This document shows positions 3,788 through 63,732 of a stretch of 64,000 nucleotides of DNA, one piece after another (position 1 is the stretch's first letter; each line of letters begins with the position of its first letter). This DNA is from a virus (Duplodnaviria; Heunggongvirae; Uroviricota; Caudoviricetes): IMG/VR virus record IMGVR_UViG_3300022562_000870, positions 4,184-68,183 of that record; one strand, written 5' to 3'. Under the pieces are notes generated by a model that was not told where the DNA came from, did no database searches, and saw only the letters and a list, made by a program, of their open reading frames with translations. Both the position numbers and the translations under genes were made by a program.

Positions 3788-4109
3788 TATGTTTGCACTT
3801 TATTTAAATCCAGTTACGGCAAATGCGGAAAGTTACATTCCCGTGGCAATGGCCGATTCATTCGAACGTCTTGAACGTTTATTAGAAGAAGAACTGTGTG
3901 AAGGATATAGTGATGGCCGTTACTACAGAAATTTCAAAGAAGGTATACTTCACAACTTCAATCCACCATCAATGAATGGCTTAAACTGTTTTGGTGTAAA
4001 TGAAGGAATTGTTGAAGTTGTAAGTGATGAAGATCTAAAACGATGGCATCAGGAAGAACTAAATAATTGGTACTTTCATTTTGCATCTTCAACACGATTT
4101 TATGATTGA
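3780..4109 (+). CDS. hypothetical protein
   Basis: ORF overlapping the stop of the upstream gene. Confidence 0.4.
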   Translation: MINMFALYLNPVTANAESYIPVAMADSFERLERLLEEELCEGYSDGRYYRNFKEGILHNFNPPSMNGLNCFGVNEGIVEVVSDEDLKRWHQEELNNWYFHFASSTRFYD

Positions 4110-4119
4110 TTTTTGGATG

Positions 4120-4320
4120 TAGTAATGTCCACCGTGCTTTGACGGCAAGTAGGCGAGCAGTTTCTCAAAAGTACCTACGGCGTAGGGAAAATAAATCTGG
4201 CTTTAAAGGGTTGTAGCCCCGTAGTCGAATATACCTGAGCATATGACAATGAGTACAAAGGCCAAGGAAAGTTGTTGTCTGACTGACGAACAGACCATCC
4301 AAATTTATTAAAGGTGAAAA
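4120..4320 (+). ncRNA. candidate structured noncoding region (unassigned)
   Basis: About 200 nt between genes with no ORF and higher GC than the surroundings. Hairpins include GTCTGACTGACGAACAGAC. Not tRNA-like. Confidence 0.2.
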
Positions 4321-4439
4321 ATTATGTGGTTTTCTATGTTATTATTCTGTATACTGATTGTGTTGGTTGTAGTGCTTTCAGATGCCGATACAGAAAGAAT
4401 GTATAAGCGGCAAGAAAAAGACGATGAGAAAAATGAAAA

Positions 4440-4757
4440 ATGAGCTTATTTGTAAAACAAAATGTTTTTTGTTCCTGTTGTGGGAAGCCAATCAAGGAAA
4501 ATCTTGGTAAAAAACGAATCCTATGTAGTGATAAATGCTATGAAATTATGGAAAAGAAATACGTTTCTTATGTTATGGGTAAGGAATACGCGGGTGAAGA
4601 ACCAAATTCGCCACTTAACGCTTACATGGAAGCAATAAACGAAATCGACGACTTTTTTGAATATGCCAATGAGTCTAGAACGGATAGGAAGCGTGTACAT
4701 GAAATACTTGGCAGGCTTACAGAAAAATTAGTAAAAATTTATAACCATAAGGAATAA
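4440..4757 (+). CDS. hypothetical zinc-ribbon protein
   Basis: CSCCGK...CSDKC cysteine pairs. Confidence 0.4.
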   Translation: MSLFVKQNVFCSCCGKPIKENLGKKRILCSDKCYEIMEKKYVSYVMGKEYAGEEPNSPLNAYMEAINEIDDFFEYANESRTDRKRVHEILGRLTEKLVKIYNHKE

Positions 4758-6690: not shown

Positions 6691-7578
6691 ATGTTGTGGG
6701 TAGTTCAAAATAATTTATATAATGAAGATGGTTATACGCGCTTTATTGGCGCGTTGGAACGTCTTGGCTGCGATTATTTAGTGGTTAAACCAGTTCCTTT
6801 CACCAACATACTTCTTCCTGCCGATTTTGATTCTATGACACAAGAAGTAGATGACGTTGAAGAACCATATATCGATCCAGACCAAAGAATTATAGTCATG
6901 GGTGCTACATCTTTATCGCGCATTGCTAAAGCACGTGGATGGAATCCTGGTACATTCCTTAATGACAATTTTGATTTCTCCGTTTGGCGTGAAGGATTTG
7001 GACCAGAAAATATTTTAAATTCGGATTCTATTGTCGCGAAGATTTGTGATCCTATCAACGTTACTGAAATGTCTGATACATTGTTTGTTCGTCCTGTACA
7101 CGATACCAAAGCATTTACTGGACTTACTATGAGCAAACACGATTTTCATGATTGGATATTACAACATTCCGTTATTGAGGAAGAAGAATTTCAACCACTG
7201 CACAAAAATACTGAAATAGCTATAGCAAGCTACAAAGAAATATATGCCGAATATAGATTTTTTGTTGTTAATGCACAGGTTGTAACTGGAAGTATGTACA
7301 AACGCGGCTCAATGGTTCAATATAGTAATCATATTGACGACCATGTTTTAAAATTCGCACAAAGCATGGTTCGATATTGGCAGGAAAAGGTAGATAGTAC
7401 ATTAGCCATTTATCCAGAAGCGCACGCGCCTGCGCAAGCATATGTATTAGATATAGCCGATACACCAGATGGTTTAAAAGTAATAGAAATAAACAACATT
7501 AATTCGGCGGGTTTTTATGATGCCGATCCAATGCTAATAATTACAGCCCTAGAAGATTTGGTGCGATATTATGACTAA
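6691..7578 (+). CDS. ATP-grasp-like domain protein
   Basis: C-terminal YVLDIADTPDGLKVIEINNINSAGFY resembles the ATP-grasp Mg/ATP-binding region. Confidence 0.4.
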   Translation: MLWVVQNNLYNEDGYTRFIGALERLGCDYLVVKPVPFTNILLPADFDSMTQEVDDVEEPYIDPDQRIIVMGATSLSRIAKARGWNPGTFLNDNFDFSVWREGFGPENILNSDSIVAKICDPINVTEMSDTLFVRPVHDTKAFTGLTMSKHDFHDWILQHSVIEEEEFQPLHKNTEIAIASYKEIYAEYRFFVVNAQVVTGSMYKRGSMVQYSNHIDDHVLKFAQSMVRYWQEKVDSTLAIYPEAHAPAQAYVLDIADTPDGLKVIEINNINSAGFYDADPMLIITALEDLVRYYD

Positions 7579-9086: not shown

Positions 9087-9770
9087 ATGAAAAAGATAGT
9101 TGAAATACGTGCCGCAGAGGGCGGACAGGATAGCAAATTATTTGTCAATGATTTGGCAATCGCATACGAAAAAACCTTTTCTAAACTAGGCTGAAAGTCT
9201 ACACGCTCGTCCGAGCGAGATGGCTTCGTGTCTATTGAAGTCATCGGCAAAAATCTTAACCAATTAAAAAATGAAGCAGGCGGACATCGCATACAACGCG
9301 TTCCACCAACAGAACGTCGTGGTAGGGTGCATACGTCTACTGTAACTGTGGCTATTTTAGATGAAGCATACACAGCCAATTCTAAATATATGCTTCGTGA
9401 AGATCATCATTACTATTTTGAACCTTTTAAATCAACGGGTGCGGGTGGACAGCATAAGAACAAAACCCTTAGTGCTATCAAATGTATCCATATTCCTACT
9501 GGAATTAAGCAGGAAAGGTCAAGTAGGGATCAGCATAAAAACAAACGCGAAGCGCGGATTGCAGTCGATAAAATGCTGGATTCTTTGATAATTGAAGAGC
9601 AAAATGCTAATCAGAACACAGAACGCAGTGATATGGTGGGAAGCGGTATGCGTGGTGATAAAATCAGAACATACCGTTTTCAAGAAGATATCATAATTGA
9701 CCATATTTCTGATAAAAAAGTTAATCTAAAACAAGTATTTAGGGGTAACATGGATGTGTTCTGGAAATAA
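9087..9770 (+). CDS. peptide chain release factor homolog (RF1-type PxT motif, lacks domain 1; PrfH-like) interrupted by an in-frame TGA at 9192-9194
   Basis: - RBS AGGAGA upstream of ATG at 9087.
- IRAAEGGQDSKLFVNDLAIAY matches the start of RF domain 2.
- GGHRIQRVPPTERRGRVHTS carries the PxT motif.
- STGAGGQHKNKTLSAIKCIHIPTGI carries the GGQ motif.
- Both parts are in the same frame, separated only by TGA. Confidence 0.6.
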
Positions 9771-10277: not shown

Positions 10278-10622
10278 ATGCCAATGCAAGGAAAAGTATG
10301 GGGTAAAACCCAATTAATCGAACGTAATGCAAACTTTGAAGTTCATCGTATCGAAGCAAAGAAAGGTGGATTTTGTTCTAAGCACAAACATGAACACAAA
10401 TTCAACAAGTTCTTCGTTGAAAGTGGTAGATTTCAAATTGATGTTTGGCAAACAGATTACGATCTTGTAGATACTACCATTGTTGAAGCTGGTCAAAGCA
10501 CAACAGTTAAACCCGGACGCTATCACATGTTTAAAGCACTTGAAGATTCCGTGGTATATGAAATTTATTGGGTACAACTTGAAGCTGATGATATTCAGCG
10601 CGAAAACGTTGGTGGTAATTAA
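10278..10622 (+). CDS. cupin-fold protein (possibly sugar ketoisomerase-like)
   Basis: [17 protein letters not shown] has the cupin His pattern. It sits immediately upstream of kdsA. Confidence 0.4.
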
Positions 10623-11440
10623 TGGATAATCTTTGCGGATTTGAAATCGGAGGCGATAAGCCATTTTTTCTTATTGCTGGGCCTTGTGTTATTGAAGGCG
10701 AATATATCACCATGGAAACCGCAGAAAAGTTAAAAGAAATTACTGATAAACTTAATATTGGATTCATATTTAAATCTTCTTTCGATAAAGCTAACAGAAC
10801 TTCTATAAGGGGGTTTCGTGGATTAGGTATGGAAGCAGGATTGAAAATATTAGAAAAGGTTCGTAACGAATTCAATGTACCAATATTAACAGATGTCCAT
10901 GAAGATACGCCCATTGATGAAGTAGCAAGTGTAGTTAATGTTTTACAAACGCCTGCTTTTCTTGCAAGACAAACGAATTTTATAACTCGTGTTGCAGCAA
11001 CAGGTAAACCTGTTAACATCAAGAAAGCGCAATTTATGGCACCGTGGGATATGATTAACGTTGTAGAAAAAGCCAAGTCTACTGGCAACAAACAAATCAT
11101 GGTTTGTGAACGTGGTACATCGTTTGGATATAATACGTTGGTTTCTGATATGCGCTCGTTAGTTGAATTGCGCAAAACCGGATGCCCTGTTGTATTTGAT
11201 GCTACACATTCTGTACAGATGCCCGGTGGTCAAGGAACGTCTTCTGGTGGACAGCGCGAACACGTGCCGACGTTGGCGCGTGCGGCAGTAGCGGTCGGAG
11301 TTGATGGTTTATTCATGGAAACACATCCAACGCCAGACAAGGCTTTATCTGATGGACCAAATATGGTACCATTGCATGAAATGGAAAATCTGTTGCAAGC
11401 TTTAACGTCGATAGATTATGCAGCAAAAGCATACTTATGA
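10622..11440 (+). CDS. kdsA: 2-dehydro-3-deoxyphosphooctonate aldolase (KDO-8-phosphate synthase)
   Basis: Matches bacterial KdsA across the protein: [52 protein letters not shown]. Confidence 0.85.
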
Positions 11441-18613: not shown

Positions 18614-19612
18614 ATGCCTATACCAGAGGATATACAAGTCCATGTACTTGATATGGAACTTAATGGTGGATGTAATTATAAGTGTAAAATGTGTCCCCAA
18701 TCAGTCAGCCGTGAAAAAGAATTTCTTAAAAAACTGCCGCTTGATGTATTTGAAAAAGTAATAGATGATGCTATGCAATATGGTTTAAAAACTGTTACAT
18801 TGCATGGAAGTGGCGAACCTACACTCAACAAAGATATGCCAGATTTTGTTCGTGCTGTAAAAAAACGCGGATTAACTTGTATTAGTTTTACAAATGGATT
18901 AAAACTTACCGAAAAACTTTCTAAAGAACTTATCGATGCAGGGATCGATATTCTTCGCCTCTCATGTATTGGATACGATAAAGAAACTTATGAAGAATGG
19001 ATGGAACGCGGAGATTATGATTTAGTTCGCGAAAATGCAAAACGTTTTGTTGAACTAGCTAAGGGCAAAAATACCGAAATGCATATTAATCATCTCATTA
19101 TTGATAAAGATAACATAGATTATGAAATAGCCATGTATCGTAAAAATTGGGGTGAATATACTGGTGCACGTTCTGAAATGTGGTTGATGCATAATTGGAG
19201 TCATAGTGATAAGGTTGAATTAAAATATCTACGTGAAGAATTCTTAAATAAGAAAAAACTTCGTACATGTGGTAGACCATTTGCGCCATTGCTCCAAGTT
19301 AGGGCTGGTGGTTTAGATGGACATAAAGCAGCTGTAGTAGCCTGTTGTATGGTATTAGGTAAAGATAGTCAAGGCGTACTTGGTCATCTTGATACAGATT
19401 CTATCGCTGATGTTGTTAATGGTGAATTATATACGGAATTGCGCAAGGCACATGAAGAAAAGCGGTTTGATGATATATCTTATTGTAAGGGATGTGACCA
19501 ATTAATTGATACGCCAGAGGCTTTAGTGTGGTGTGATATTCCCGGCCGTGAATATGGTCAAAGCAAAAACCTTGCTACACTTAATTTTTTAAATTATTCT
19601 AAGGATAAGTAA
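18614..19612 (+). CDS. radical SAM enzyme
   Basis: CNYKCKMCP is the CxxxCxxC cluster. Additional C-terminal cysteines are consistent with an auxiliary cluster. Confidence 0.65.
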   Translation: MPIPEDIQVHVLDMELNGGCNYKCKMCPQSVSREKEFLKKLPLDVFEKVIDDAMQYGLKTVTLHGSGEPTLNKDMPDFVRAVKKRGLTCISFTNGLKLTEKLSKELIDAGIDILRLSCIGYDKETYEEWMERGDYDLVRENAKRFVELAKGKNTEMHINHLIIDKDNIDYEIAMYRKNWGEYTGARSEMWLMHNWSHSDKVELKYLREEFLNKKKLRTCGRPFAPLLQVRAGGLDGHKAAVVACCMVLGKDSQGVLGHLDTDSIADVVNGELYTELRKAHEEKRFDDISYCKGCDQLIDTPEALVWCDIPGREYGQSKNLATLNFLNYSKDK

Positions 19613-28954: not shown

Positions 28955-29803
28955 ATGTCGATTATAAAACATGGTGATTGTCTTGATGTTTTAAAAGAAT
29001 ATCCAGACGATTATTTTGATTTGATATTAACATCACCACCATACGCCGATGCACGCGTAAAAACTTATGGTGGCGTTCCCCCAGATGAATATGTAGAATG
29101 GTTCCTACCACGCTCTGAAGAATTTTTGCGCGTATTAAAACCCACAGGAACTTTTATTCTTAATATTAAAGAAAAGACGGTCAATTCAGAACGAAGCACC
29201 TATGTTATAGAACTAATTCTTGAACTACGCAAACAAGGATGGTTATGGACAGAAGAGTTTATCTGGCATAAAACAACAGCATTTCCTGGAAAATGGCCAA
29301 ACAGATTTCGAGATGCATGGGAAAGATGTTTACAGTTTAATAAAAATAAAAAATTTAAAATGAATCAAGAAGCTGTAATGGTGCCAATCGGTGATTGGGC
29401 AACAAAAACTTCAAGACTTACATCTTTAACAAAAAACGATAAAGTACGCCATGATTCTTCAACCAATAGTGGTTTTAGTAAAAAAACCGCCAATTGGGTT
29501 AATAGGGATATGGTATATCCAACCAATGTTTTACATTTAGCACCAGAAACTGGAAATCGTAAACATAGCGCAGTATTTCCTAAGAAAATACCAGAATGGT
29601 TTATTAAATTATTTACCGATGAAGGTGATATGGTATTAGACCCATTTGTTGGTTCTGGAACTACATGTCACGTAGCAGATGAACTTAACCGTGAATCTGT
29701 TGGTATAGATATTCTTGAAGAAAATATAGAATTAGCTGACAATAAAATGAAAAATTGTGATCTCTTAACATTTGACATAGAAGAAAAAGAAAATGAAAAT
29801 TGA
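28955..29803 (+). CDS. DNA methyltransferase (N6-adenine or N4-cytosine, beta-class)
   Basis: TSPPYAD (motif IV) precedes DPFVGSGTT (motif I). Confidence 0.75.
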   Translation: MSIIKHGDCLDVLKEYPDDYFDLILTSPPYADARVKTYGGVPPDEYVEWFLPRSEEFLRVLKPTGTFILNIKEKTVNSERSTYVIELILELRKQGWLWTEEFIWHKTTAFPGKWPNRFRDAWERCLQFNKNKKFKMNQEAVMVPIGDWATKTSRLTSLTKNDKVRHDSSTNSGFSKKTANWVNRDMVYPTNVLHLAPETGNRKHSAVFPKKIPEWFIKLFTDEGDMVLDPFVGSGTTCHVADELNRESVGIDILEENIELADNKMKNCDLLTFDIEEKENEN

Positions 29804-30641
29804 TAAAAAACGAGTTGACTTGCGGTTGCAAGAATTCAGAATGAATAGAATAGCAGCAATTGAAAAATTTAATATTGAAGAAAAATTAGCAAGGGTAGAT
29901 ATGAGTTTATACAGAATCAACGGTATACTTACTATAAAAGACTTTGCTAAAAAAATGGTAAAAGACTGGTACGCAAGGAATACAGAAACAGAACATGGAC
30001 ATGTTATGGAACATATTGCAACATTGACAGTGGAAGAAAATTTTAAAGTTTTGGATGTTCCACAAAGTGAAAAATGTAGTTTTGATATTTTATTCACCGT
30101 AGAAGATAGTAATGGTCGAACAATGTTAACTGGCTTACAAGTTAAAGCAGGTGAAAATAGTCAAAATTGTCAAAACATGGATGGATATAAGGGTGATGTT
30201 ATTAAATTTAACAAAAAATATAAACACGAATATGATAATGTAATGTGCATAAAAGGATCTTGTCGCGGTACTTCTAACGGGTTCATATTAGTAGACGGTA
30301 TACCTAAACATTTAAGTATAAAGTTGGCTGGACAGGAATTCTGGAAGAAAATAAGTGGTGGCAGTGATGACTTCTTTGAAAAAGTGTATGGTCTTGTAGA
30401 TTATTTTTTCGCAGAACATGAAGAAGTAATCGACGAAAAGTTAAATGAATTAATTTCTAATGTTTGTAACTATTTAAGTGCTAACTGCTCAAACGATGGT
30501 GTACATATAGATCCATTAAAAGTTTTATCATACACATCAGTTAGTAAATTACCCAACCCCGCACTATTAGATAATGCGCTTGCGGCTATTGAAAACCCCG
30601 ACGCATTTTATGAAAGAGAAAGTCTTATTTCATATGAATAA
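29793..30641 (+). CDS. hypothetical protein between two methyltransferases (nuclease or anti-restriction function possible)
   Basis: Position only. Weak D...E.K spacing (FDILFTVED...LQVK). Confidence 0.35.
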   Translation: MKIDKKRVDLRLQEFRMNRIAAIEKFNIEEKLARVDMSLYRINGILTIKDFAKKMVKDWYARNTETEHGHVMEHIATLTVEENFKVLDVPQSEKCSFDILFTVEDSNGRTMLTGLQVKAGENSQNCQNMDGYKGDVIKFNKKYKHEYDNVMCIKGSCRGTSNGFILVDGIPKHLSIKLAGQEFWKKISGGSDDFFEKVYGLVDYFFAEHEEVIDEKLNELISNVCNYLSANCSNDGVHIDPLKVLSYTSVSKLPNPALLDNALAAIENPDAFYERESLISYE

Positions 30642-31212
30642 ACCCACCATACAAGATTTTATAGATATCGACGACCTTCCACCAAACGAAGAACAAATGA
30701 TGAAGGCGGCTGGTTTCACACATGATAGTGTGGACAATCAGTCTGTAGATTGGTATACACCTAAATGGATATTTGATGAATTAGATATAAAATTTGATCT
30801 CGATCCTTGTCATCCAAAACAAAGAATTCCATGGATTCCCGTAGAAAAGCATTATAGTTTAGAAGATGATGGATTAAAATCACCATGGTTTGGAAACGTT
30901 TGGTTAAATCCTCCATATGGTAAGGAAACTAGTATATGGTTAGAAAAGATGCATAACCATCGTAATGGTATAGCATTAGTTTTTGCCAGAACGGATTGTC
31001 AATGGTATCACAATTATGTTACACGGGCAGATGGATTACTTTTTCTTAAAGGTAGAATTAGGTTCGTAGATGGTCTTGGTGTTACAAAGGGTGGTGGTGC
31101 TGGCAGTGGATCTATGCTCATATCATGGGGTGAAGCTAATACTAATAGGTTAAAACAAATATCCGACCGGGGTCATTTTATACCCCTTGACGAATTGAAA
31201 AAAATAAGGTAA
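30634..31212 (+). CDS. DNA N6-adenine methyltransferase, phage Dam-like
   Basis: DWYTPKWIF and NPPYG motifs. The start was refined to ATG at 30634, overlapping the upstream stop. Confidence 0.65.
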   Translation: MNKPTIQDFIDIDDLPPNEEQMMKAAGFTHDSVDNQSVDWYTPKWIFDELDIKFDLDPCHPKQRIPWIPVEKHYSLEDDGLKSPWFGNVWLNPPYGKETSIWLEKMHNHRNGIALVFARTDCQWYHNYVTRADGLLFLKGRIRFVDGLGVTKGGGAGSGSMLISWGEANTNRLKQISDRGHFIPLDELKKIR

Positions 31213-34660: not shown

Positions 34661-35869
34661 ATGAATGAATATCAGCAAAAAATATATGACGATTTAATGC
34701 AACTTGTTGAAAACAATGAAGCATTTTACTACGTTGACCAACACATATTTGATGGTTTATCATCATCTATTGATACAGTATATCGTATTTTCTTATATCG
34801 ATTAGCTTCTTACACAGACTTTCTGAATCCATCGGCGCTGGAATGTCGTGGTATTACTTTTGAAGTAACTGAAGAAGGTAAGAATGCACAACCAATTCGC
34901 TTGGCGGCAATGCCAATGGAAAAGTTTTTCAATTTACATGAAAATCCATTCACTATGGATTTAGATCTTTCCGCTGTTGAAAGTGTAATGTTGAAAGCTG
35001 ATGGTAGTTTAATATCGGCTTTCAAACACAATGGTTATCTACGGCTTAAGACGAAAGGTTCGTTGTGGTCTGACCAAGCAATGGCGGCAATGGGGTGGTT
35101 ACACGATCATGAAAATCAACCACTACTTAATGAAATAACATTATTAGTTAACCATGGCTTTACCGTCAATATGGAATGGTGTGCGCCAGATAATCGTATT
35201 GTTATCAATTACCAAGAACCAAAGTTAGTAATTCTTAATATCCGCAATAATGAAGATGGTAGTTATGTTCGCTATCCTGATCGCGTAGATGAAGGTTTTG
35301 TTGAAATACACAAACATTGGATAGAATTGGAACAACCAAAAGATATCAATGAATTTGTTAAGCAAATACCTTCTATGAAAGATGTGGAAGGTTATGTTGT
35401 ATGCATCAGTTCTGGTCAACCTCATGCCAAAACTCAATTGGCTAACGGTGATTGTTGCATTGGTATCCAGCATGTTAAAATAAAGACTGAATGGTACTTG
35501 ACACAACATCGTGCAAAAGATTCTATCGATAGCCCACGGCGTTTGTTCGAAGCTGTCTTGGAAGAAGCTACTGATGACTTAAAATCTTTATTCCATGATA
35601 ATCCATATGTCTTGAATAAAATCGACGAAATGGAAAAATTCGTTGAAGTACGATACAACCACTTGGTTGATACTGTCGAACGTTTCTATGAACGCAATAA
35701 AGGATTAGAACGCAAAGAATATGCTATTCTTGGACAACAGGAAATGGATCGTATGCAGTTCGGTTTAGCTATGATGAAGTATTTGGATAAGCCTGTTTCT
35801 TACAAAGATGCTATGAAAAAGGCTTGGAAACATTATGGCCTTAAAGATGCAGTAAAGGAAGAAGAATGA
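34661..35869 (+). CDS. RNA ligase, T4 Rnl1-like
   Basis: Nucleotidyltransferase motif I in LKADGSLI (KxDGSL as at T4 Rnl1 K99). Size about 400 aa. Confidence 0.6.
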   Translation: MNEYQQKIYDDLMQLVENNEAFYYVDQHIFDGLSSSIDTVYRIFLYRLASYTDFLNPSALECRGITFEVTEEGKNAQPIRLAAMPMEKFFNLHENPFTMDLDLSAVESVMLKADGSLISAFKHNGYLRLKTKGSLWSDQAMAAMGWLHDHENQPLLNEITLLVNHGFTVNMEWCAPDNRIVINYQEPKLVILNIRNNEDGSYVRYPDRVDEGFVEIHKHWIELEQPKDINEFVKQIPSMKDVEGYVVCISSGQPHAKTQLANGDCCIGIQHVKIKTEWYLTQHRAKDSIDSPRRLFEAVLEEATDDLKSLFHDNPYVLNKIDEMEKFVEVRYNHLVDTVERFYERNKGLERKEYAILGQQEMDRMQFGLAMMKYLDKPVSYKDAMKKAWKHYGLKDAVKEEE

Positions 35870-36390
35870 GTATTGATTTGCCGCAAGGCCCAATATCTTG
35901 GGAAGCTGCGGCTGCCCTCGATGAAGAATATGCAAAGGTTCTTGAACGTGAAGAACTAGGATATGACCTTTATATTGACAATGCTAATGTTCTTAGATGG
36001 GTACCAAATCCAGAACGCGTGGAAGAAATCATGAATGAATTTGGTGCAAAAGATCTTAATGATTTATTTGGTAGATGTAATGCGGATAAAAACGATCCAA
36101 AGATTCGCGAACTTTACAAAGCTATGGGTTACAGTTTATCTGGATTTTGGGAAATATTTTATTGGGAAGTAAACAATGAAGACGCATGGGCGTATCAAGG
36201 AAGATTGAAAACTCCTGTTGATAAAAAACGATTAGGATTTGAAGTGCAATTTGAAGTCAACGGTGATATTGATCCAGAAAAATTTAAGAAAGCATTCGAA
36301 TCCTTCCTTGAGTTTGGTGCCGATGAAGCAGAAAATATTGAAGGTGCTTACGAACATAAAATAATTTCAGTTGAAAGACTTTTATATTAG
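35866..36390 (+). CDS. hypothetical protein
   Basis: ORF overlapping the upstream stop. Confidence 0.4.
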   Translation: MSIDLPQGPISWEAAAALDEEYAKVLEREELGYDLYIDNANVLRWVPNPERVEEIMNEFGAKDLNDLFGRCNADKNDPKIRELYKAMGYSLSGFWEIFYWEVNNEDAWAYQGRLKTPVDKKRLGFEVQFEVNGDIDPEKFKKAFESFLEFGADEAENIEGAYEHKIISVERLLY

Positions 36391-36402: not shown

Positions 36403-36891
36403 ATGAGTACACAAGACGTACCGGGTTACGGTAGTGCATCCAGCGACAAGCTCGCTATGGGTGTTTGGGGTGAACATAACGATGGTAGTTTACTATTAGT
36501 TGAATCTACAGAAGGTGGAAGGATAGTTTATTCTATTTTTGATATGGCACAAGATCCTATCGTAGAATACCGCGATGCGATGCCAGAAGCGGGTTTCAAA
36601 GAAACATTTTCTTTTAGTAGTAAAAAATCAAAAGTAGATAGCGGTTGGGTATTCCATGATAAAACACCATTCCCATGGGATAAAGTTATGAAAAGTGGTG
36701 GCAAAGATGGTATGCGTTATGCCTCTGCTAATGACCAACTTAATGCCGCACAGCGCGTAGCACAGTCTATGGAACTTCGCAAACAAACATTTAATGGAGA
36801 TAAGTGGTCGCACATGCTCGGAGTAGTTGGTAAAAAGGGTAAAGTTATCGTTGATAAGCTGCAACGCGCAATTAACGAATTAGGAAGATAA
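36403..36891 (+). CDS. hypothetical protein
   Basis: ORF with no recognised family. Confidence 0.4.
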   Translation: MSTQDVPGYGSASSDKLAMGVWGEHNDGSLLLVESTEGGRIVYSIFDMAQDPIVEYRDAMPEAGFKETFSFSSKKSKVDSGWVFHDKTPFPWDKVMKSGGKDGMRYASANDQLNAAQRVAQSMELRKQTFNGDKWSHMLGVVGKKGKVIVDKLQRAINELGR

Positions 36892-42096: not shown

Positions 42097-42981
42097 ATGT
42101 ATAAAGAAACGCTCGACATCCTGTTGGAAGATATCAATGACCACAACGATGTAAAAACCCAACTTTTAAAAAACCAATTAGAATACCATTTTACTACAAA
42201 AGATATTGAGCGCCAACGCGTACTTGATTGTAGTGTTCCTATTGTACGTCGTGTAGTAGATAGATTTAGACTTGCAGATCTTATTGGTGTACAACCAATC
42301 ACTAATGAAAAAAATCCAACAGTTATTTCTGGTGGACTTAAATATGATGTCGCACTTCAAGATGAACCATACAAATGTTCTTATCCTGATCTGGCTGAAT
42401 ATAGTATGCTAGAGGGTGAAATAAACCAAGCTATAGGACATGAAATAGAAAGCGAAATAGTATCAACATACTTAAATATTATTGCAGAATATGCACCAGA
42501 AATTACATTTACTTTAACGGATTCGTGGGAACGGGAAAGTCTTGTAGCCTTAGCTGATACAATTGAAGAAGCTATATACGAAATTGGTGCAAATTGGATT
42601 GTAGTTTCACCATTGGTTCTTTCACTTATTCAATCAAATCCTGAAGCAGACTATAACCAAGATTCAACGGGTGAAAAGAAATTTACTATGGGTGATTTAC
42701 AACTTATAGGTTCATTTAATGGTGTTCCAACATATTGTAGTTTACACCTGCCTAATGATGGTGCTACTATTCTTATCGGTTATAAAGATCATGAAAGTGA
42801 AGACGCACCGATTGTATTCGCACCCAAAACATTAATTCAAGTTGGATTTAAAGCACGAAATGATTTTGATGATCCATATTATCCGCTATCTTCAAGACAA
42901 GCTAAATTCATTCATATACACAATGTGGAAGACCAATACAGAAAAATTACAATAAAATACGATGATGGGGTTGACATCTAA
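42097..42981 (+). CDS. hypothetical protein
   Basis: ORF with no recognised family. Confidence 0.4.
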   Translation: MYKETLDILLEDINDHNDVKTQLLKNQLEYHFTTKDIERQRVLDCSVPIVRRVVDRFRLADLIGVQPITNEKNPTVISGGLKYDVALQDEPYKCSYPDLAEYSMLEGEINQAIGHEIESEIVSTYLNIIAEYAPEITFTLTDSWERESLVALADTIEEAIYEIGANWIVVSPLVLSLIQSNPEADYNQDSTGEKKFTMGDLQLIGSFNGVPTYCSLHLPNDGATILIGYKDHESEDAPIVFAPKTLIQVGFKARNDFDDPYYPLSSRQAKFIHIHNVEDQYRKITIKYDDGVDI

Positions 42982-43403: not shown

Positions 43404-43432
43404 TTGACACCTTATCAAAGACATGTTATAAT
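43404..43432 (+). promoter_or_regulatory. sigma70-like promoter (TTGACA-17-TATAAT) facing the tRNA array
   Basis: Consensus -35 and -10 with a 17-nt spacer, about 250 nt upstream of the first tRNA of the array. Confidence 0.55.
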
Positions 43433-43685: not shown

Positions 43686-43771
43686 CTGCGTGTAGCCGGG
43701 TAACTTGGTAGCCCCCCTCGCTTGGAACGAGGTGTCGAAAGACCTTGCTGGTTCGAATCCAGTTGCGCAGA
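43686..43771 (+). tRNA. tRNA, atypical type-II-like; anticodon loop CTTGGAA (UGG, Pro?); CCA encoded
   Basis: Acceptor CTGCGTG/TGCGCAG. Anticodon stem CCTCG/CGAGG. Long variable hairpin GTCGAAAGAC. T-arm GCTGG-TTCGAAT-CCAGT. D-arm not resolved. Confidence 0.45.
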
Positions 43772-43787
43772 CCAATATACATTTAAA

Positions 43788-43870
43788 TGGGAAGTAGGAA
43801 AATTGGCAACCCCACCTGACTTTGAATCAGGCGTCGAAAGACATTGTGCGTTCGAGTCGCACCTTCCCAG
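43788..43870 (+). tRNA. tRNA, atypical type-II-like; anticodon loop CTTTGAA (UUG, Gln?); CCA encoded
   Basis: Acceptor TGGGAAG/CTTCCCA. Anticodon stem CCTGA/TCAGG. Variable hairpin GTCGAAAGAC. T-arm GTGCG-TTCGAGT-CGCAC. Confidence 0.45.
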
Positions 43871-43884
43871 CCAATTAAAAATAT

Positions 43885-43967
43885 GGATCAGATGGGGAAA
43901 CTGGTATCCCTACCCGGCTGTAACCCGGGCGCTTCTAGCACTGTAGGTTCGAATCCTACCTGATCCA
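43885..43967 (+). tRNA. tRNA-Tyr (GUA), type II; CCA encoded
   Basis: Acceptor GGATCAG/CTGATCC. D-stem GGGG/TCCC. Anticodon stem CCCGG/CCGGG with loop CTGTAAC. Long variable arm. Confidence 0.65.
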
Positions 43968-43976
43968 CCAAATTAT

Positions 43977-44057
43977 GTAGCGGCTGAACATTGGCGAGTT
44001 CACCTGCCTGTAAAGCAGATGCCTATGGCTGTGGTGGTTCGACTCCACCTCGCTGCA
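43977..44057 (+). tRNA. tRNA-Tyr (GUA), second type II copy; CCA encoded
   Basis: Acceptor GTAGCGG/TCGCTGC. D-stem GAAC/GTTC. Anticodon loop CTGTAAA. T-arm GGTGG-TTCGACT-CCACC. Confidence 0.55.
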
Positions 44058-44111
44058 CCAAATTTTGTCTGACCTAACACATCGATCACTGTTAGGATTT
44101 ACACAAGTAGT

Positions 44112-44183
44112 AACCATGTGATGTACTTGGAAGCATGGCCCCCTCTAAAGGGGTTTGTATAGGTTCGAATCCTATTGTGGTAA
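44112..44183 (+). tRNA. suppressor-type tRNA with anticodon CUA (reads UAG); no CCA encoded
   Basis: - U8 present.
- D-stem ATGT/GCAT with loop ACTTGGAA.
- Anticodon stem GCCCC/GGGGT with loop CTCTAAA.
- 4-nt variable loop.
- T-arm ATAGG-TTCGAAT-CCTAT.
- Acceptor AACCATG/TGTGGTA with an A1/A72 mismatch. Confidence 0.6.
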
Positions 44184-44246
44184 AAAATGTATTAGTTGGT
44201 ATTCATTCGCGATGAAAAATCCAACCGACAAAATTCAAATTCTATG

Positions 44247-44323
44247 GATTTCTCCCTTGGAAGGCGGCTGACCTGTGCGGTCGGTAATACTAGTTTAGAA
44301 GGGTTCAATTCCCTTGGAAATCC
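44247..44323 (+). tRNA. tRNA-like element with a non-canonical core (no anticodon arm found); CCA encoded
   Basis: Perfect acceptor GATTTCT/GGAAATC and T-arm AAGGG-TTCAATT-CCCTT. The middle forms CTGACC-TGTGC-GGTCGG, a hairpin with a 5-nt loop. Confidence 0.35.
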
Positions 44324-44334
44324 CCAAATAATAT

Positions 44335-44415
44335 ACAGTGGTATGCAAATGGTTAAAGCAGCTGGGCCTTCAACCCAGTCCGTAAGGTTTGCGAGTTCGA
44401 ATCTCGTCCGCTGTA
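44335..44415 (+). tRNA. type II tRNA with ambiguous anticodon loop CCTTCAA (UUC or UCA); CCA encoded
   Basis: Acceptor ACAGTGG/CCGCTGT. 3-bp D-stem. Anticodon stem (G)CTGGG/CCCAG(T), resembling the selC GCTGGA-CTTCAAA-TCCAGT arm. Variable hairpin CCGTAAGG. Confidence 0.45.
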
Positions 44416-44468
44416 CCAACTTTCAACCATACATTGACATTGAAATCACAGTGTGATATAATAATTGC

Positions 44469-44924
44469 ATGAAATTATGTGGAAAATGTGGAAAAACAAA
44501 ACCGCTAACTGAATTTACCTTTAAAAAAGGTAAACATAAACCACAATCATATTGTAAGGACTGTAACCGCGAATATCAACGTGAACATTATCATAGGAAT
44601 AAAGAAAAATATTTTGATGATCGTAAACAGCGAAGAAAAGATAGTAAGGAAAAGGCGATTAAACTCCTTCTTGAATATGTTAAGGATGGATGTGTTGATT
44701 GTGGTGAAAAAGATTTCGAAGTTTTAGATTTTGACCATATTGAACAGAGCAATAAAGAATATACCATATCTTATATGATAAACAATGGTTTTGGTGTTGA
44801 AAAAATCAAAAACGAACTTGAAAAATGTCGAGTATTGTGTAGTAACTGTCATCGTCGAAGAACGGCGAAGCAATTAGGATGGTATTCAGAATATTTACAT
44901 TTACTTGAAACTACATCGCTGTAG
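44469..44924 (+). CDS. HNH endonuclease-like zinc-ribbon protein
   Basis: CGKCGK...CKDC, then VDCGEKDFEVLDFDHIEQ and CSNCHRRRT. Its 3' end overlaps the start of a tRNA. Confidence 0.5.
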   Translation: MKLCGKCGKTKPLTEFTFKKGKHKPQSYCKDCNREYQREHYHRNKEKYFDDRKQRRKDSKEKAIKLLLEYVKDGCVDCGEKDFEVLDFDHIEQSNKEYTISYMINNGFGVEKIKNELEKCRVLCSNCHRRRTAKQLGWYSEYLHLLETTSL

Positions 44925-45462: not shown

Positions 45463-45547
45463 TTGCGCGGTATACAAATGGTTAACGTGATGGGCCTCAT
45501 AAGCCTATGCTGAAAAGCTTTGCGGCGTTCGAATCCCGCCTGCGCTA
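45463..45547 (+). tRNA. tRNA-like, type-II-like; anticodon loop CTCATAA (CAU); boundaries approximate
   Basis: Anticodon stem TGGGC/GCCTA. Variable hairpin GCTGAAAAGC. 3' end CTGCGCT-A-CCA. The T-stem and 5' acceptor strand are imperfect. Confidence 0.35.
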
Positions 45548-45566
45548 CCAATTAAAGGTGAACATC

Positions 45567-45767
45567 ATGAGAAGATGTAAACAATGTAATAAAAGTATTG
45601 AACATAAGCATAAGAATGCTAAGTTCTGTAAACAAAAATGTAAAGATAAATATCATAACGTGAATAATCCACGTGGATATTTTGCACACTTGGCTGGTGA
45701 AAGTAACAACTTGCACGACTATGAAGATGCACATATCTTCAGTAGTGAAGCGTTGGGTCAAGAATGA
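45567..45767 (+). CDS. small zinc-ribbon protein
   Basis: RBS AAAGGTG upstream. CKQCNK...CKQKCKDKYH. Confidence 0.4.
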   Translation: MRRCKQCNKSIEHKHKNAKFCKQKCKDKYHNVNNPRGYFAHLAGESNNLHDYEDAHIFSSEALGQE

Positions 45768-46039: not shown

Positions 46040-46111
46040 GATAAGTTTTGGCAGTGGGGCAGATTGAATATGCGGCTGATTGTCTATCAGCATTAAGAGG
46101 GTTTGATTCCC
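46040..46111 (+). tRNA. tRNA, anticodon loop TTGTCTA (GUC, Asp?); CCA encoded
   Basis: Acceptor GGCAGTG/CACTGTC. Anticodon stem GCTGA/TCAGC. T-arm GAGGG-TTTGATT-CCCTT. D-stem poor. Confidence 0.45.
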
Positions 46112-46119
46112 TTCACTGT

Positions 46120-46187
46120 CGCCAAATATACTATTGTAGTTTAACAAAAATACCTGGAGTAGTCTGGGAGATGTGGGTGAAAATCCT
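46120..46187 (+). tRNA. tRNA-like element with an atypical T-loop (TGAAAAT) and unresolved anticodon; CCA encoded
   Basis: Perfect acceptor ACTATTG/CAATAGT. T-stem GTGGG/CCTGC formed with G-U pairs. Confidence 0.3.
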
Positions 46188-50128: not shown

Positions 50129-50704
50129 ATGATTAGTTACGGTTTGCTTGCAGAAGCATTGGAATATTATCAAGACCAAGGTTATGAACTGGTTGACGTT
50201 CCTTGGACTGTTTCCAAACAATCGATGAATATAACCGCAGGCAAAAGCATCGATTTAGAAAAAAATAAATACATAGACGACTACTTGGTTGGAAGCGCAG
50301 AGCAATCTTTCTTGCACATGATCCGAGGAGGTGAACTTTCCGAAGGAAGATACTGCGCTATAACCCCGTGTTTTAGAAGCAACGATCCTGAAGATGAACT
50401 TCATCAGAAATATTTTATGAAAGTTGAACTTATTTCATACAATAAAAAATGGTGGCAATGGGTATCGGATATGGAATTATTAATCTATGATGCGCGACAG
50501 TTCTTCGAACAATGGGTTCCTACGACAGTAGTTAAAACGAAGGATGAACGTAGCGATGAAAGTTATGATATTGAATGTAATGGAATTGAATTAGGTTCAT
50601 ATGGTATTAGACACTTCGAAAATATTGATTGGGTTTATGGTACAGGATTGGCCGAACCTAGATTTTCAAATGTATTGAATAGAGAATTTTATGCCAACAG
50701 TTAA
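50129..50704 (+). CDS. minimal class II aminoacyl-tRNA synthetase core, SerRS-like (amino acid:carrier-protein ligase-like)
   Basis: - ITPCFRSNDPEDELHQKYFMKVE matches SerRS motif 2 (TPCFRSEA...HQFDKVE).
- YELVDVPW is motif-1-like.
- C-terminal IELGSYGIR...YGTGLAEPR is motif-3-like.
- Only 191 aa, with no N-terminal tRNA-binding arm. Confidence 0.55.
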   Translation: MISYGLLAEALEYYQDQGYELVDVPWTVSKQSMNITAGKSIDLEKNKYIDDYLVGSAEQSFLHMIRGGELSEGRYCAITPCFRSNDPEDELHQKYFMKVELISYNKKWWQWVSDMELLIYDARQFFEQWVPTTVVKTKDERSDESYDIECNGIELGSYGIRHFENIDWVYGTGLAEPRFSNVLNREFYANS

Positions 50705-59718: not shown

Positions 59719-60744
59719 ATGAACAAGCTATTAACACGTGATGATTTTCGCAATAGCGTCTTTGAACGTGATCGTCACACGTGTGTATTTTGTAAAAACC
59801 CTGCCGTAGATGCGCATCATATTATAGAACGACGCCTGTGGCCTGATGGTGGCTACTATTTAAATAACGGTGCTTCGGTTTGTGAAGAACATCACCTTGC
59901 TTGTGAAATGACAACAATGTCTGTTGAAGAAGTTCGTGAAGCATGTGGCATTGAAAAACCTATTATACCGCCACATTTATATGATGACCAAATTTACGAT
60001 AAATGGGGTAACATAGTATTACCTAATGGACAGCGCCTTAAAGGTGAATTGTTCTTCGATGAAAGTGTTCAAAAGATACTTGAAAAGGGTGGTGTATTAC
60101 CACTATTCACTGGTTACGTAAAATACCCAAGAACATATCACCTTCCTTGGTCACAAGGATTACACGATGATGATCGAATGATGAACAATGTAGATGCCTT
60201 CATTGGGCAGCGCGTAATCGTAACCGAAAAACTTGATGGTGAAAATACTACACTGTATTATGATCATAATCATGCGCGTTCTATCGATAGTGGTGGACAT
60301 GCTAGTCGTGATTGGGTTAAAAATTTCTGGTCACAATTTAATTTTGAAATTCCTGAAGATTGGCGCGTATGTGGTGAAAATATGTATGCGGAACATTCTA
60401 TACCTTATAACGACCTAAAATCTTATTTTTATGGATTCTCCATATGGAATGAAAAGAACATATGTTTATCGTGGGATGAAACCTTAGAATGGTTTAGGTT
60501 ATTACATCCTAAATTAGTCCATGTTCCAGTTTTATACGATGGTATATTCGATAAAAAGGTTATCGTTGACTTATGGAATGATTCGATGTATGATACTTGT
60601 GAAGGGTACGTTATGCGCGTAGCTGATTCTTTTTCTATGAATGAATTTAGGTTCAAAGTGGGAAAGTTTGTTCGCAAAGACCATATCAGAACTACACCGC
60701 ATTGGATGCACGGCAAACCCATAACAGTTAATAAATTGAAATAA
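59719..60744 (+). CDS. HNH nuclease domain fused to an ATP-dependent RNA/DNA ligase-like nucleotidyltransferase
   Basis: - N-terminus: HTCVFCKNPAVDAHHIIERR...CEEHH (HNH).
- C-terminus: motif I VIVTEKLDGEN (KxDGxN), motif IV EGYVMRV, motif V FKVGKFVRK. Confidence 0.55.
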   Translation: MNKLLTRDDFRNSVFERDRHTCVFCKNPAVDAHHIIERRLWPDGGYYLNNGASVCEEHHLACEMTTMSVEEVREACGIEKPIIPPHLYDDQIYDKWGNIVLPNGQRLKGELFFDESVQKILEKGGVLPLFTGYVKYPRTYHLPWSQGLHDDDRMMNNVDAFIGQRVIVTEKLDGENTTLYYDHNHARSIDSGGHASRDWVKNFWSQFNFEIPEDWRVCGENMYAEHSIPYNDLKSYFYGFSIWNEKNICLSWDETLEWFRLLHPKLVHVPVLYDGIFDKKVIVDLWNDSMYDTCEGYVMRVADSFSMNEFRFKVGKFVRKDHIRTTPHWMHGKPITVNKLK

Positions 60745-63075: not shown

Positions 63076-63309
63076 ATGAATAAGCTTCTTGACGATACAC
63101 CATTAACCTTTGGTAAACATAAGGGCGAAACGCCCAATGATATTGCTGTGGTTAATCCACAATATGTCGTTTGGATGTACGATAATATGAATAGAAAATT
63201 TTGTACGATGGAATTAAGAAACAAATGTGAAGATATGTCACATGGTAATGACGAAGAGTGGCATGAATTATCAAGCGTATATTTTGAGGATATAGATCCG
63301 TGGGGATGA
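63076..63309 (+). CDS. hypothetical protein
   Basis: Ends at TGA 63307-63309. The next ORF starts in the same frame one codon later. Confidence 0.35.
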   Translation: MNKLLDDTPLTFGKHKGETPNDIAVVNPQYVVWMYDNMNRKFCTMELRNKCEDMSHGNDEEWHELSSVYFEDIDPWG

Positions 63310-63312
63310 ACA

Positions 63313-63732
63313 ATGTGGCACACCAGTACTGGTATAATCAAATACGATCCGCCTCGACCGGGTATGAAGCGTCGTACAGATTGGTGGGCAATCCTTCAAA
63401 TTGATAGAGAGATTACTCGCTATTATCGTTGGTGGGTAATGAAAGAAAAATGGATTGACTTGTGTCAACCTTCATGGGATGCACACGTTTCAATTATCCG
63501 TGGCGAAAAACCCCCCGAAGATAAAATGCACCTTTGGAAGAAATATGACGGCCAACGGGTTGATTTTAAATACAAACATGACGTTCGTCGAAGTGGCGAT
63601 ACCACAGGTTGGGATAGACCAAGCCATTACTGGTTTGTTGAAGTAGATTGTCCCCTATTGATTGACATTCGCAAGGAATTAGGTTATCCTTGTAATTGGA
63701 AACTGCATTTAACAATCGGTAGAACGTGGTAA
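63313..63732 (+). CDS. hypothetical protein
   Basis: ORF with no recognised family. Confidence 0.35.
   Translation: MWHTSTGIIKYDPPRPGMKRRTDWWAILQIDREITRYYRWWVMKEKWIDLCQPSWDAHVSIIRGEKPPEDKMHLWKKYDGQRVDFKYKHDVRRSGDTTGWDRPSHYWFVEVDCPLLIDIRKELGYPCNWKLHLTIGRTW

Follow-up and report, generated by a model that had tools for sequence, protein, structure and literature searches.

Does a phage that carries a tRNA with the anticodon CUA read the stop codon UAG as an amino acid? The question is raised by a gene at 44112-44183 (+ strand) of the 64,000-nucleotide stretch of viral DNA analyzed here (the window), which a first-pass annotation had singled out within a tRNA array and taken, together with a release-factor-like gene, as a sign that the phage manipulates termination. 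We examined the tRNA gene, its genomic setting and its distribution, the genetic code of the surrounding sequence and the release-factor gene. The reading that we favor, and to which we give about an even chance, is that of a genuine, lineage-specific CUA tRNA in a huge uncultured phage whose genome otherwise follows the standard code; the tRNA would probably be an amber suppressor, possibly a weak one.

The CUA tRNA gene and its structure

ARAGORN called a tRNA at 44111-44184 with the anticodon cta, and the Rfam tRNA model RF00005 matched 44112-44183 along its entire length (model positions 1-71 of 71) with 45.9 bits (E=1.4e-6 for the whole window), the gathering score being 29. In the covariance-model alignment, CUCUAAA was placed in the anticodon loop with a posterior probability of 1.00, which puts the anticodon at 44145-44147. 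The minimum-free-energy fold of the tRNA alone was a near-cloverleaf. The coordinates and the anticodon arm drawn in the first-pass annotation were therefore exact by ARAGORN, Rfam and the alignment; the covariance model accepted the fold and did not displace the anticodon. The locus is a genuine tRNA gene.

Counting the discriminator A at 44183, the tRNA is 72 nt long. U8 and G9 are followed by a 4-bp D-stem (AUGU/GCAU) that encloses an 8-nt D-loop, ACUUGGAA, with G18G19 within it. G26 is present, and the 5-bp anticodon stem GCCCC/GGGGU carries a loop in which A36-A37-A38 is usual for readers of UNN codons. A 4-nt variable loop (UUGU) leads to the T-arm AUAGG-UUCGAAU-CCUAU, in which 5 of the 5 stem pairs are perfect. 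The conserved bases U8, A14, G18G19, A21, G26, U33, A37, and G53 are all found, as are T54, T55, C56, A58, and C61 of the T-arm. The acceptor stem had been described as canonical, and this does not hold. Its strands AACCAUG and UGUGGUA form an A1·A72 mismatch, the sole pair marked non-standard in the covariance-model alignment, and U6·G67 and G7·U66 pairs; CCA is not encoded at the 3' end, where AAAAAATG comes next. All 28 other tRNAs of the window encode CCA, making the CUA tRNA the only exception among 29, and it is one of just two of the 29 with an acceptor-stem mismatch. Its Rfam score of 45.9 bits falls inside the range of the others (35.6-68.7 bits).

A copy without a single mismatch is present in a separate assembly (JGI 3300015263, contig L002), and that contig terminates in an A-run directly past the gene. 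An Rfam E-value scan found no theta- or HDV-like ribozyme 3' of the CUA tRNA, and folding of the spacer after it gave a weak hairpin at most.

The phage and its tRNA array

All genes of the window lie on the + strand in short, tightly packed open reading frames (ORFs) with a GC content of ∼36%. The window and a further 8 kb past its right edge (L003) make up the ∼72 kb of genome sequence read in this study; together they hold ∼40 tRNAs, which cover 18 amino acids. Megablast and blastn searches with the array as query found nothing larger than tRNA-sized pieces among 50,697 phage records, and the INPHARED collection contained no close phage. Protein searches identified relatives from metagenomes only, namely a 363.5-kb IMG/VR contig (loci L004, L014, and L019) and contigs of 51-273 kb (L013, L015, and L016). 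As the relatives come from metagenomes only and include the 363.5-kb contig, we take the source to be a huge uncultured phage, of which the window is an accessory and tRNA region. The phage is present in the samples JGI 3300015263 and SRR14699976.

Among the encoded products are a weak capsid homologue of the T4 gp23 type (42097-42981), for which tblastn against the phage records found nothing and an IMG/VR search confirmed no relative, as well as an ADP-ribosylglycohydrolase, a KdsA-like synthase, glycosyltransferases, a GMP-reductase-like protein, and a radical SAM protein (18614-19612) bearing a SPASM domain. An N6/N4 methyltransferase, an EcoO109I-type restriction enzyme and a Dam-like methylase at 28955-31212, a trio that appears restriction-modification-like, are followed by a Band_7 protein. 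Two RNA ligases, one of the T4 Rnl1 type and a second matching PF09414, are encoded at 34661-35869 and 59719-60744. Their presence suggests that the phage mends tRNAs cut by host anticodon nucleases; a polynucleotide kinase was not recognized in the window.

The tRNAs of the window, 28 found by ARAGORN and one seen by Rfam alone, are all on the + strand. The CUA tRNA lies on the same strand as the neighboring tRNAs and is closely packed with them in a sub-array at 43686-44418 (+ strand) composed of Pro-UGG, Gln-UUG, Tyr-GUA, Tyr-GUA, the CUA tRNA, a tRNA-like remnant, and Glu-UUC. The remnant (44246-44323, + strand; 18.5 bits in Rfam) is part of an 81-nt element ending in CCA. A consensus sigma-70 promoter-like site (TTGACA-17-TATAAT with TG, 12/12 matches; 43404-43432, + strand) lies ∼250 nt upstream of the sub-array, and a second perfect site (12/12, extended -10 TG; 44434-44462) lies past it. 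No convincing terminator was found between the first site and 44434. Consensus sites bracketing the sub-array make co-transcription of the CUA tRNA with its neighbors plausible, and we infer that the site at 43404-43432 drives its transcription. Two 12/12 sites also hint at a host RNA polymerase that uses E. coli-type promoters.

Several other members of the array are unusual. tRNA-Pro(UGG) (43686-43774) and tRNA-Gln(UUG) (43788-43873) both have the hairpin insert GUCGAAAGAC in the variable region, and in tRNA-Glu(UUC) (44335-44418) the variable arm is long and position 33 is C; elsewhere in the window, Pro and Glu tRNAs of ordinary form occur, as does a tRNA-Gln(CUG). The slot between tRNA-Tyr and tRNA-Glu holds degenerate tRNA-like elements both in the window and in L004 of the 363.5-kb relative. 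In the latter, a 111-nt tRNA-like gene with an 8-nt anticodon loop and a 44-nt insertion (L004:12013-12123; 25 bits) is accompanied by a second degenerate element (L004:12133-12200). Two weak tRNA matches in the window were made by Rfam only, at 46050-46121 (39.5 bits), which has G8, the loop UUGUCUA and a G-CCA end, and at 45464-45547 (29.6 bits). HNH endonuclease genes are found among the tRNAs at 44469-44924, 45507-45767, and 1758-2396. The TAG stop of the first falls within the 5' end of a tRNA-Glu (44915); this gene is missing between the two Glu tRNAs of L004 and is inserted just downstream in the window.

Distribution and origin of the CUA tRNA

The matching array of the 363.5-kb relative reads Pro, Pro, Gln, Tyr, two odd tRNA-like elements, Glu, Glu, and the CUA tRNA is absent from it. 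The Tyr genes of the window and L004 align well, and the segment from Tyr to Glu is non-homologous. None of the 17 tRNAs of L015 has a CUA anticodon, nor was a CUA tRNA present in the stretches seen of L004/L019, L021, L023, and L024. IMG/VR gave no match to an exact 36-mer, to a degenerate pattern of the anticodon arm and T-loop, or to a pattern of the T-arm and acceptor stem. In a scan of JGI metagenomes, the last pattern detected only two unrelated tRNAs, and these resemble the CUA tRNA because the pattern itself imposes the likeness; a scan of GTDB genomes with the anticodon left free had no matches. Global alignment with 89 other tRNAs, from the window and the fetched loci, revealed no sense-tRNA parent, the best being identical at 52 of 72 positions. 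On these comparisons the CUA tRNA appears to be specific to this phage lineage, which probably acquired it recently at a variable place within the array.

A gene gained in this manner may also be a relic, a crippled tRNA that acquired the CUA anticodon or came in by horizontal transfer beside a homing endonuclease and that is now non-functional or nearly so and kept as neutral. We regard this as a possible but doubtful explanation. It is consistent with the sole CCA-less tRNA of the window having A·A at 1:72 and two G·U pairs in the acceptor stem, with the position of the gene in a variable segment beside the 18.5-bit remnant and an HNH gene, with its absence from relatives and with the lack of client TAG codons in the region read (see below). 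A second CUA tRNA, in a distant relative (L020), is defective as well, 3 of its 5 anticodon-stem pairs being non-standard. However, a decaying gene is expected to show scattered damage, and this tRNA retains every universally conserved base and unbroken D, anticodon, and T stems, with a score in the middle of the range for the genome. CCA-less tRNA genes are normal in many systems, in which a CCA-adding enzyme completes them, and a tRNA-Glu in L004 also lacks CCA.

UAG is an ordinary stop codon in the region read

Under a simple ORF model, the coding density of the window was 0.892, 0.896, and 0.887 for codes 11, 15, and 4, respectively, and code 15 gave no density gain in L003 either; the criterion for a recoded phage is a gain of 5-10%, with a cutoff of more than 5% applied to contigs of at least 100 kb (Borges et al. 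preprint). TAA ends 70, TGA 35 and TAG 17 (14%) of 122 ORFs, and the median extension to the next in-frame stop is similar for the three stops (6 codons after TAG, 7 after TAA, and 5 after TGA). About a dozen of the TGA-ending ORFs overlap the next start as ATGA (coordinates read by eye). In-frame TAG is absent from the gp23-like gene (42097-42981).

The sole pair of ORFs joined by a TAG in the window, 35866-36390 and 36403-36891, was considered as a read-through product and rejected. The 162-aa downstream protein has the same MSTQDVPG start and Shine-Dalgarno sequence in L004 and L005, where it follows a different upstream gene. As it has its own start behind another gene there, the two ORFs are separate genes, and the TAG between them is a genuine stop codon. 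Two further in-frame stop candidates, at 3789-4757 and 63076-63732, were ruled out on translation. L020 has two TAG-joined ORF pairs, which were likewise rejected; one consists of tandem paralogues, and the second ORF of the other has a signal-peptide-like N-terminus.

No UAG codon needing the CUA tRNA was found in the ∼72 kb, structural and lysis genes lying outside this region. UAG is an ordinary stop and the code is standard throughout the ∼72 kb. The idea that the tRNA serves to suppress or reassign UAG thus survives in its first half only. By its anticodon the tRNA is a candidate amber suppressor, and both the coding density and the use of TAG as a stop speak for the standard code instead of reassignment; the in-frame TAG codons that would have accompanied the latter have no support in the ∼72 kb, the one joined pair being two genes.

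In recoded phages, the standard code is retained by early genes and by the very genes that bring about the code change (Borges et al. preprint; jumbo-phage survey), and in-frame stops are concentrated in structural and lysis genes (Borges et al. preprint). Late structural or lysis genes beyond the region read might carry in-frame TAG codons in a stage-specific recoding of the code 15 type, which we consider unlikely. Such use of CUA tRNAs is known in crAss-like, Lak, and other phages (Borges et al. preprint; jumbo-phage survey), the ∼72 kb read compares with 363.5 kb for the contig of the closest long relative, and a strong early-type promoter stands ahead of the CUA tRNA. Several results argue the other way. 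TAG stops are not depleted, at 14%, unlike in the standard-code relatives of recoded phages (Borges et al. preprint); code 15 adds no density in the window or in L003; the gp23-like gene is free of in-frame TAG; the co-encoded release factor is RF1-like and not RF2; and the matching array of the 363.5-kb relative has no CUA tRNA.

A short RF1-like gene with a conserved in-frame TGA

The release-factor-like gene was said to lie next to the tRNA. It is located at 9087-9770 (+ strand), ∼34 kb upstream of the CUA tRNA; it is the only RF-like ORF, and no nearer ORF containing GGQ was found. The gene encodes PCRF and RF-1 domains with a PPT (PxT-type) motif and GGQ, domain 1 being absent. The protein scores 126 bits against E. 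coli RF1 (residues 112-339) and 68 bits against RF2.

An in-frame TGA interrupts the gene at 9192-9194, at about codon 36. Homologues have TGA at the same codon at L019:6001-6690 (82% identity), at L024:9089-9772 (80%; called product P0025) and at L020:6001-6675 (45%). The stop-codon anomaly that had been attributed to this gene is thus borne out, being kept in homologues down to 45% identity. The position is occupied by Trp in 16 of 17 full-length homologues. Where the others have the in-frame TGA, the 57% identical factor at L023:7215-7896 has a +1 frame shift, at CGT CTT TGA CGC near 7310-7320; this site is CUU UGA C, the frameshift motif of bacterial prfB (RF2). The short RF family has more than 3500 database members, many of which look truncated, as expected from splitting at the same stop. 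TGA is otherwise a normal stop in the window, where it ends 35 ORFs. Judged from this conservation, the early UGA looks like a checkpoint at which production of the phage factor is gated. No description of an early-UGA checkpoint in a short phage RF was found in the literature searched.

As an RF1-type factor terminates at UAG, it would oppose or compete with the CUA tRNA. Recoded phages pair Sup-CUA with RF2 and Sup-UCA with RF1 (Borges et al. preprint), and the jumbo-phage survey describes the same pairing. The claim that the tRNA and the release factor jointly manipulate termination is not upheld by these data. The factor would oppose suppression, and in the closest long relative the RF gene with its TGA occurs while the matching array is free of a CUA tRNA, so joint action of the two is not established.

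L020 has a CUA-anticodon tRNA of its own at 10610-10681, with an Rfam score of 53 bits, an encoded CCA, and a perfect TTGACA-17-TATAAT promoter. Besides its 3 non-standard pairs out of 5 in the anticodon stem, ARAGORN reads a 4-base anticodon, 'ctaa'. This tRNA lies 4 kb from the L020 RF gene and is unrelated to that of the window, with which it shares 42 of 72 bases. A permuted tmRNA gene (L020:7034-7462) directly follows the RF gene.

It remains conceivable, though decidedly unlikely, that the CUA tRNA and the RF gene form a circuit that retunes termination in a standard-code host, or that they mark an intermediate toward a TAG-recoded huge phage. In the first case, amber read-through would be on early from the consensus promoter, and the RF1-type factor would later restore or sharpen termination at UAG and UAA, its synthesis being gated by the efficiency of host RF2 at the early UGA. 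In the second, recoding would be under way outside the gut clades in which it is known. The unrelated CUA tRNA of L020, 4 kb from the same RF gene, speaks for these possibilities; the closest long relative, whose matching array lacks the CUA tRNA, speaks against them.

Amino acid identity and proposed action

The 4-nt variable loop excludes the bacterial type-II bodies (Tyr, Leu, and Ser). E. coli GlnRS tends to charge CUA tRNAs, above all those with an unpaired 1:72; the enzyme recognizes U35 and prefers an open 1:72 pair. The CUA tRNA has the layout of the phage's own tRNA-Gln(CUG), both being 72 nt long with an 8-nt D-loop, a 4-nt variable loop and a weak 1:72, and the two also share U50-A64 and A51-U63 in the T-stem and the loop CUCUNAA. 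It is identical at 48 of 72 positions (hand count) to the CUA tRNA of the crAss-like phage cr7_1, which is annotated as tRNA-Gln, the identity rising to 78% over positions 32-72. Against Gln, the CUA tRNA has A73, A2-U71, C3-G70, and A10, whereas the phage's own Gln tRNAs have G73 and G2-C71. Gln is on these sequence features the single likeliest guess, if one that would turn out wrong somewhat more often than right; Lys, Glu, and Trp are possible.

A 191-aa protein encoded at 50129-50704 (and at L004:15808-16386) matches phrog_4806, 'histidyl tRNA synthetase' (E=1e-49), and has a weak PF00152 class II aaRS core. It is too short for a complete synthetase. We considered and rejected it as a dedicated charging enzyme, since it also occurs in L004, where no CUA tRNA was seen, and sequence comparison with solved structures found no meaningful similarity. 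Given the phrog_4806 match, its presence in L004 and the lack of a structural match, nothing ties this protein to the CUA tRNA.

From the sequence we infer the following course of expression, maturation, charging, and suppression. The CUA tRNA would probably be transcribed with its six neighbors by the host RNA polymerase from the sigma-70 promoter and excised by RNase P and 3' nucleases. Since the gene encodes no CCA, a host CCA-adding enzyme would finish the 3' end. A host aminoacyl-tRNA synthetase would then charge the tRNA, GlnRS being the likeliest because of its recognition of U35 and preference for an open 1:72. The charged tRNA would compete with RF1 at UAG, giving low-level amber read-through. 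The E. coli initiator tRNA binds EF-Tu less well because of its 1:72 mismatch, and suppression by the CUA tRNA could therefore be inefficient. On present evidence the tRNA is a dispensable or weak suppressor, and no gene in the ∼72 kb needs it. It could buffer amber mutations, disturb host termination, or represent a pre-adaptive acquisition before a code change. It is not a working part of a recoded genome.

A 1:72 mismatch with A72 and A73 is a trait of bacterial initiator tRNAs, and the CUA tRNA recalls them in this trait, in C3-G70 and in its G+C-rich anticodon stem. The phage also invests in tRNA repair through the T4 Rnl1-type and second RNA ligases. We nevertheless find it highly improbable that the tRNA has an unusual or non-decoding role, either initiating translation at UAG or acting as a decoy or substitute substrate for an anticodon nuclease. 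The initiator likeness is contradicted by U11-A24 in place of A11-U24 and by C-G pairs in place of G29-C41, G30-C40, and G31-C39. A scan for Shine-Dalgarno sequences followed by a TAG start and an ORF of at least 60 codons gave 3 sites, each with an ATG 2-15 codons downstream, and nothing points to a decoy function. The proposal of a pyrrolysine system has next to no chance and is excluded by the tRNA architecture, as ARAGORN's label 'tRNA-Pyl' is due to the CUA anticodon alone, and G18G19, T54-T55-C56, the 8-nt D-loop, the 4-nt variable loop, and the 5-bp anticodon stem all disagree with it, no PylS or PylBCD being present among the window proteins scanned or the Pfam matches on contigs that carry window proteins.

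Comparison with known suppressor systems

Phage suppressor tRNAs are the means by which some phages switch their genetic code during infection. Suppressors in standard-code genomes have been proposed as the start of code change, and each well-documented case helps to test that model. The existence of phage suppressor tRNAs is established, including in standard-code relatives of recoded phages, so the CUA tRNA of the window belongs to a known kind; the present case is a data point and brings no new principle. Most of the residual interest lies in the co-occurrence, in a huge phage sampled from the environment, of a CUA tRNA with a seemingly UGA-gated factor that is RF1-like and not RF2-like, which departs from the usual pairing.

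Classical amber suppressors offer one comparison. E. coli supE is a tRNA-Gln with the anticodon CUA and T4 psu1+ a tRNA-Ser with the same anticodon; both compete with RF1 at UAG, and psu1+ relies on host 3' processing and CCA addition. In each, one mutation in the anticodon of a recognizable sense tRNA created the suppressor. The CUA tRNA of the window differs in that no sense parent was found for it, the best of 89 tRNAs sharing 52 of 72 positions. tRNA-Pyl, whose hallmarks are a 3-nt variable loop, a short D-loop without G18G19, the lack of T-Psi-C, and a 6-bp anticodon stem, has only the CUA anticodon in common with it.

The suppressor of the Agate clade (Borges et al. preprint) is alike in being a suppressor tRNA in a code-11 genome of low GC. 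It reads TGA in a phage that is nearly rid of TGA stops (Borges et al. preprint), whereas the tRNA of the window would read TAG and TAG stops are not depleted.

The Sup-CUA tRNAs of TAG-recoded (code 15) phages, which include crAss-like phages, Lak, and Phass-1, provide the closest parallel in structure. Their genomes differ from the region read here, which is unrecoded, uses TAG as a normal stop and has an RF1-like partner in place of RF2 and shows no theta- or HDV-like ribozyme after the tRNA. The window phage probably has a host that reads sigma-70 consensus promoters, which would set this host apart from the Bacteroidota that crAss and Lak phages infect. The tRNAs themselves share the CUA anticodon, the loop CUCUAAA, a type-I body, and a setting within a tRNA cluster. 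The CUA tRNA of cr7_1, like that of the window, also has a weak 1:72, A73 and no encoded CCA.
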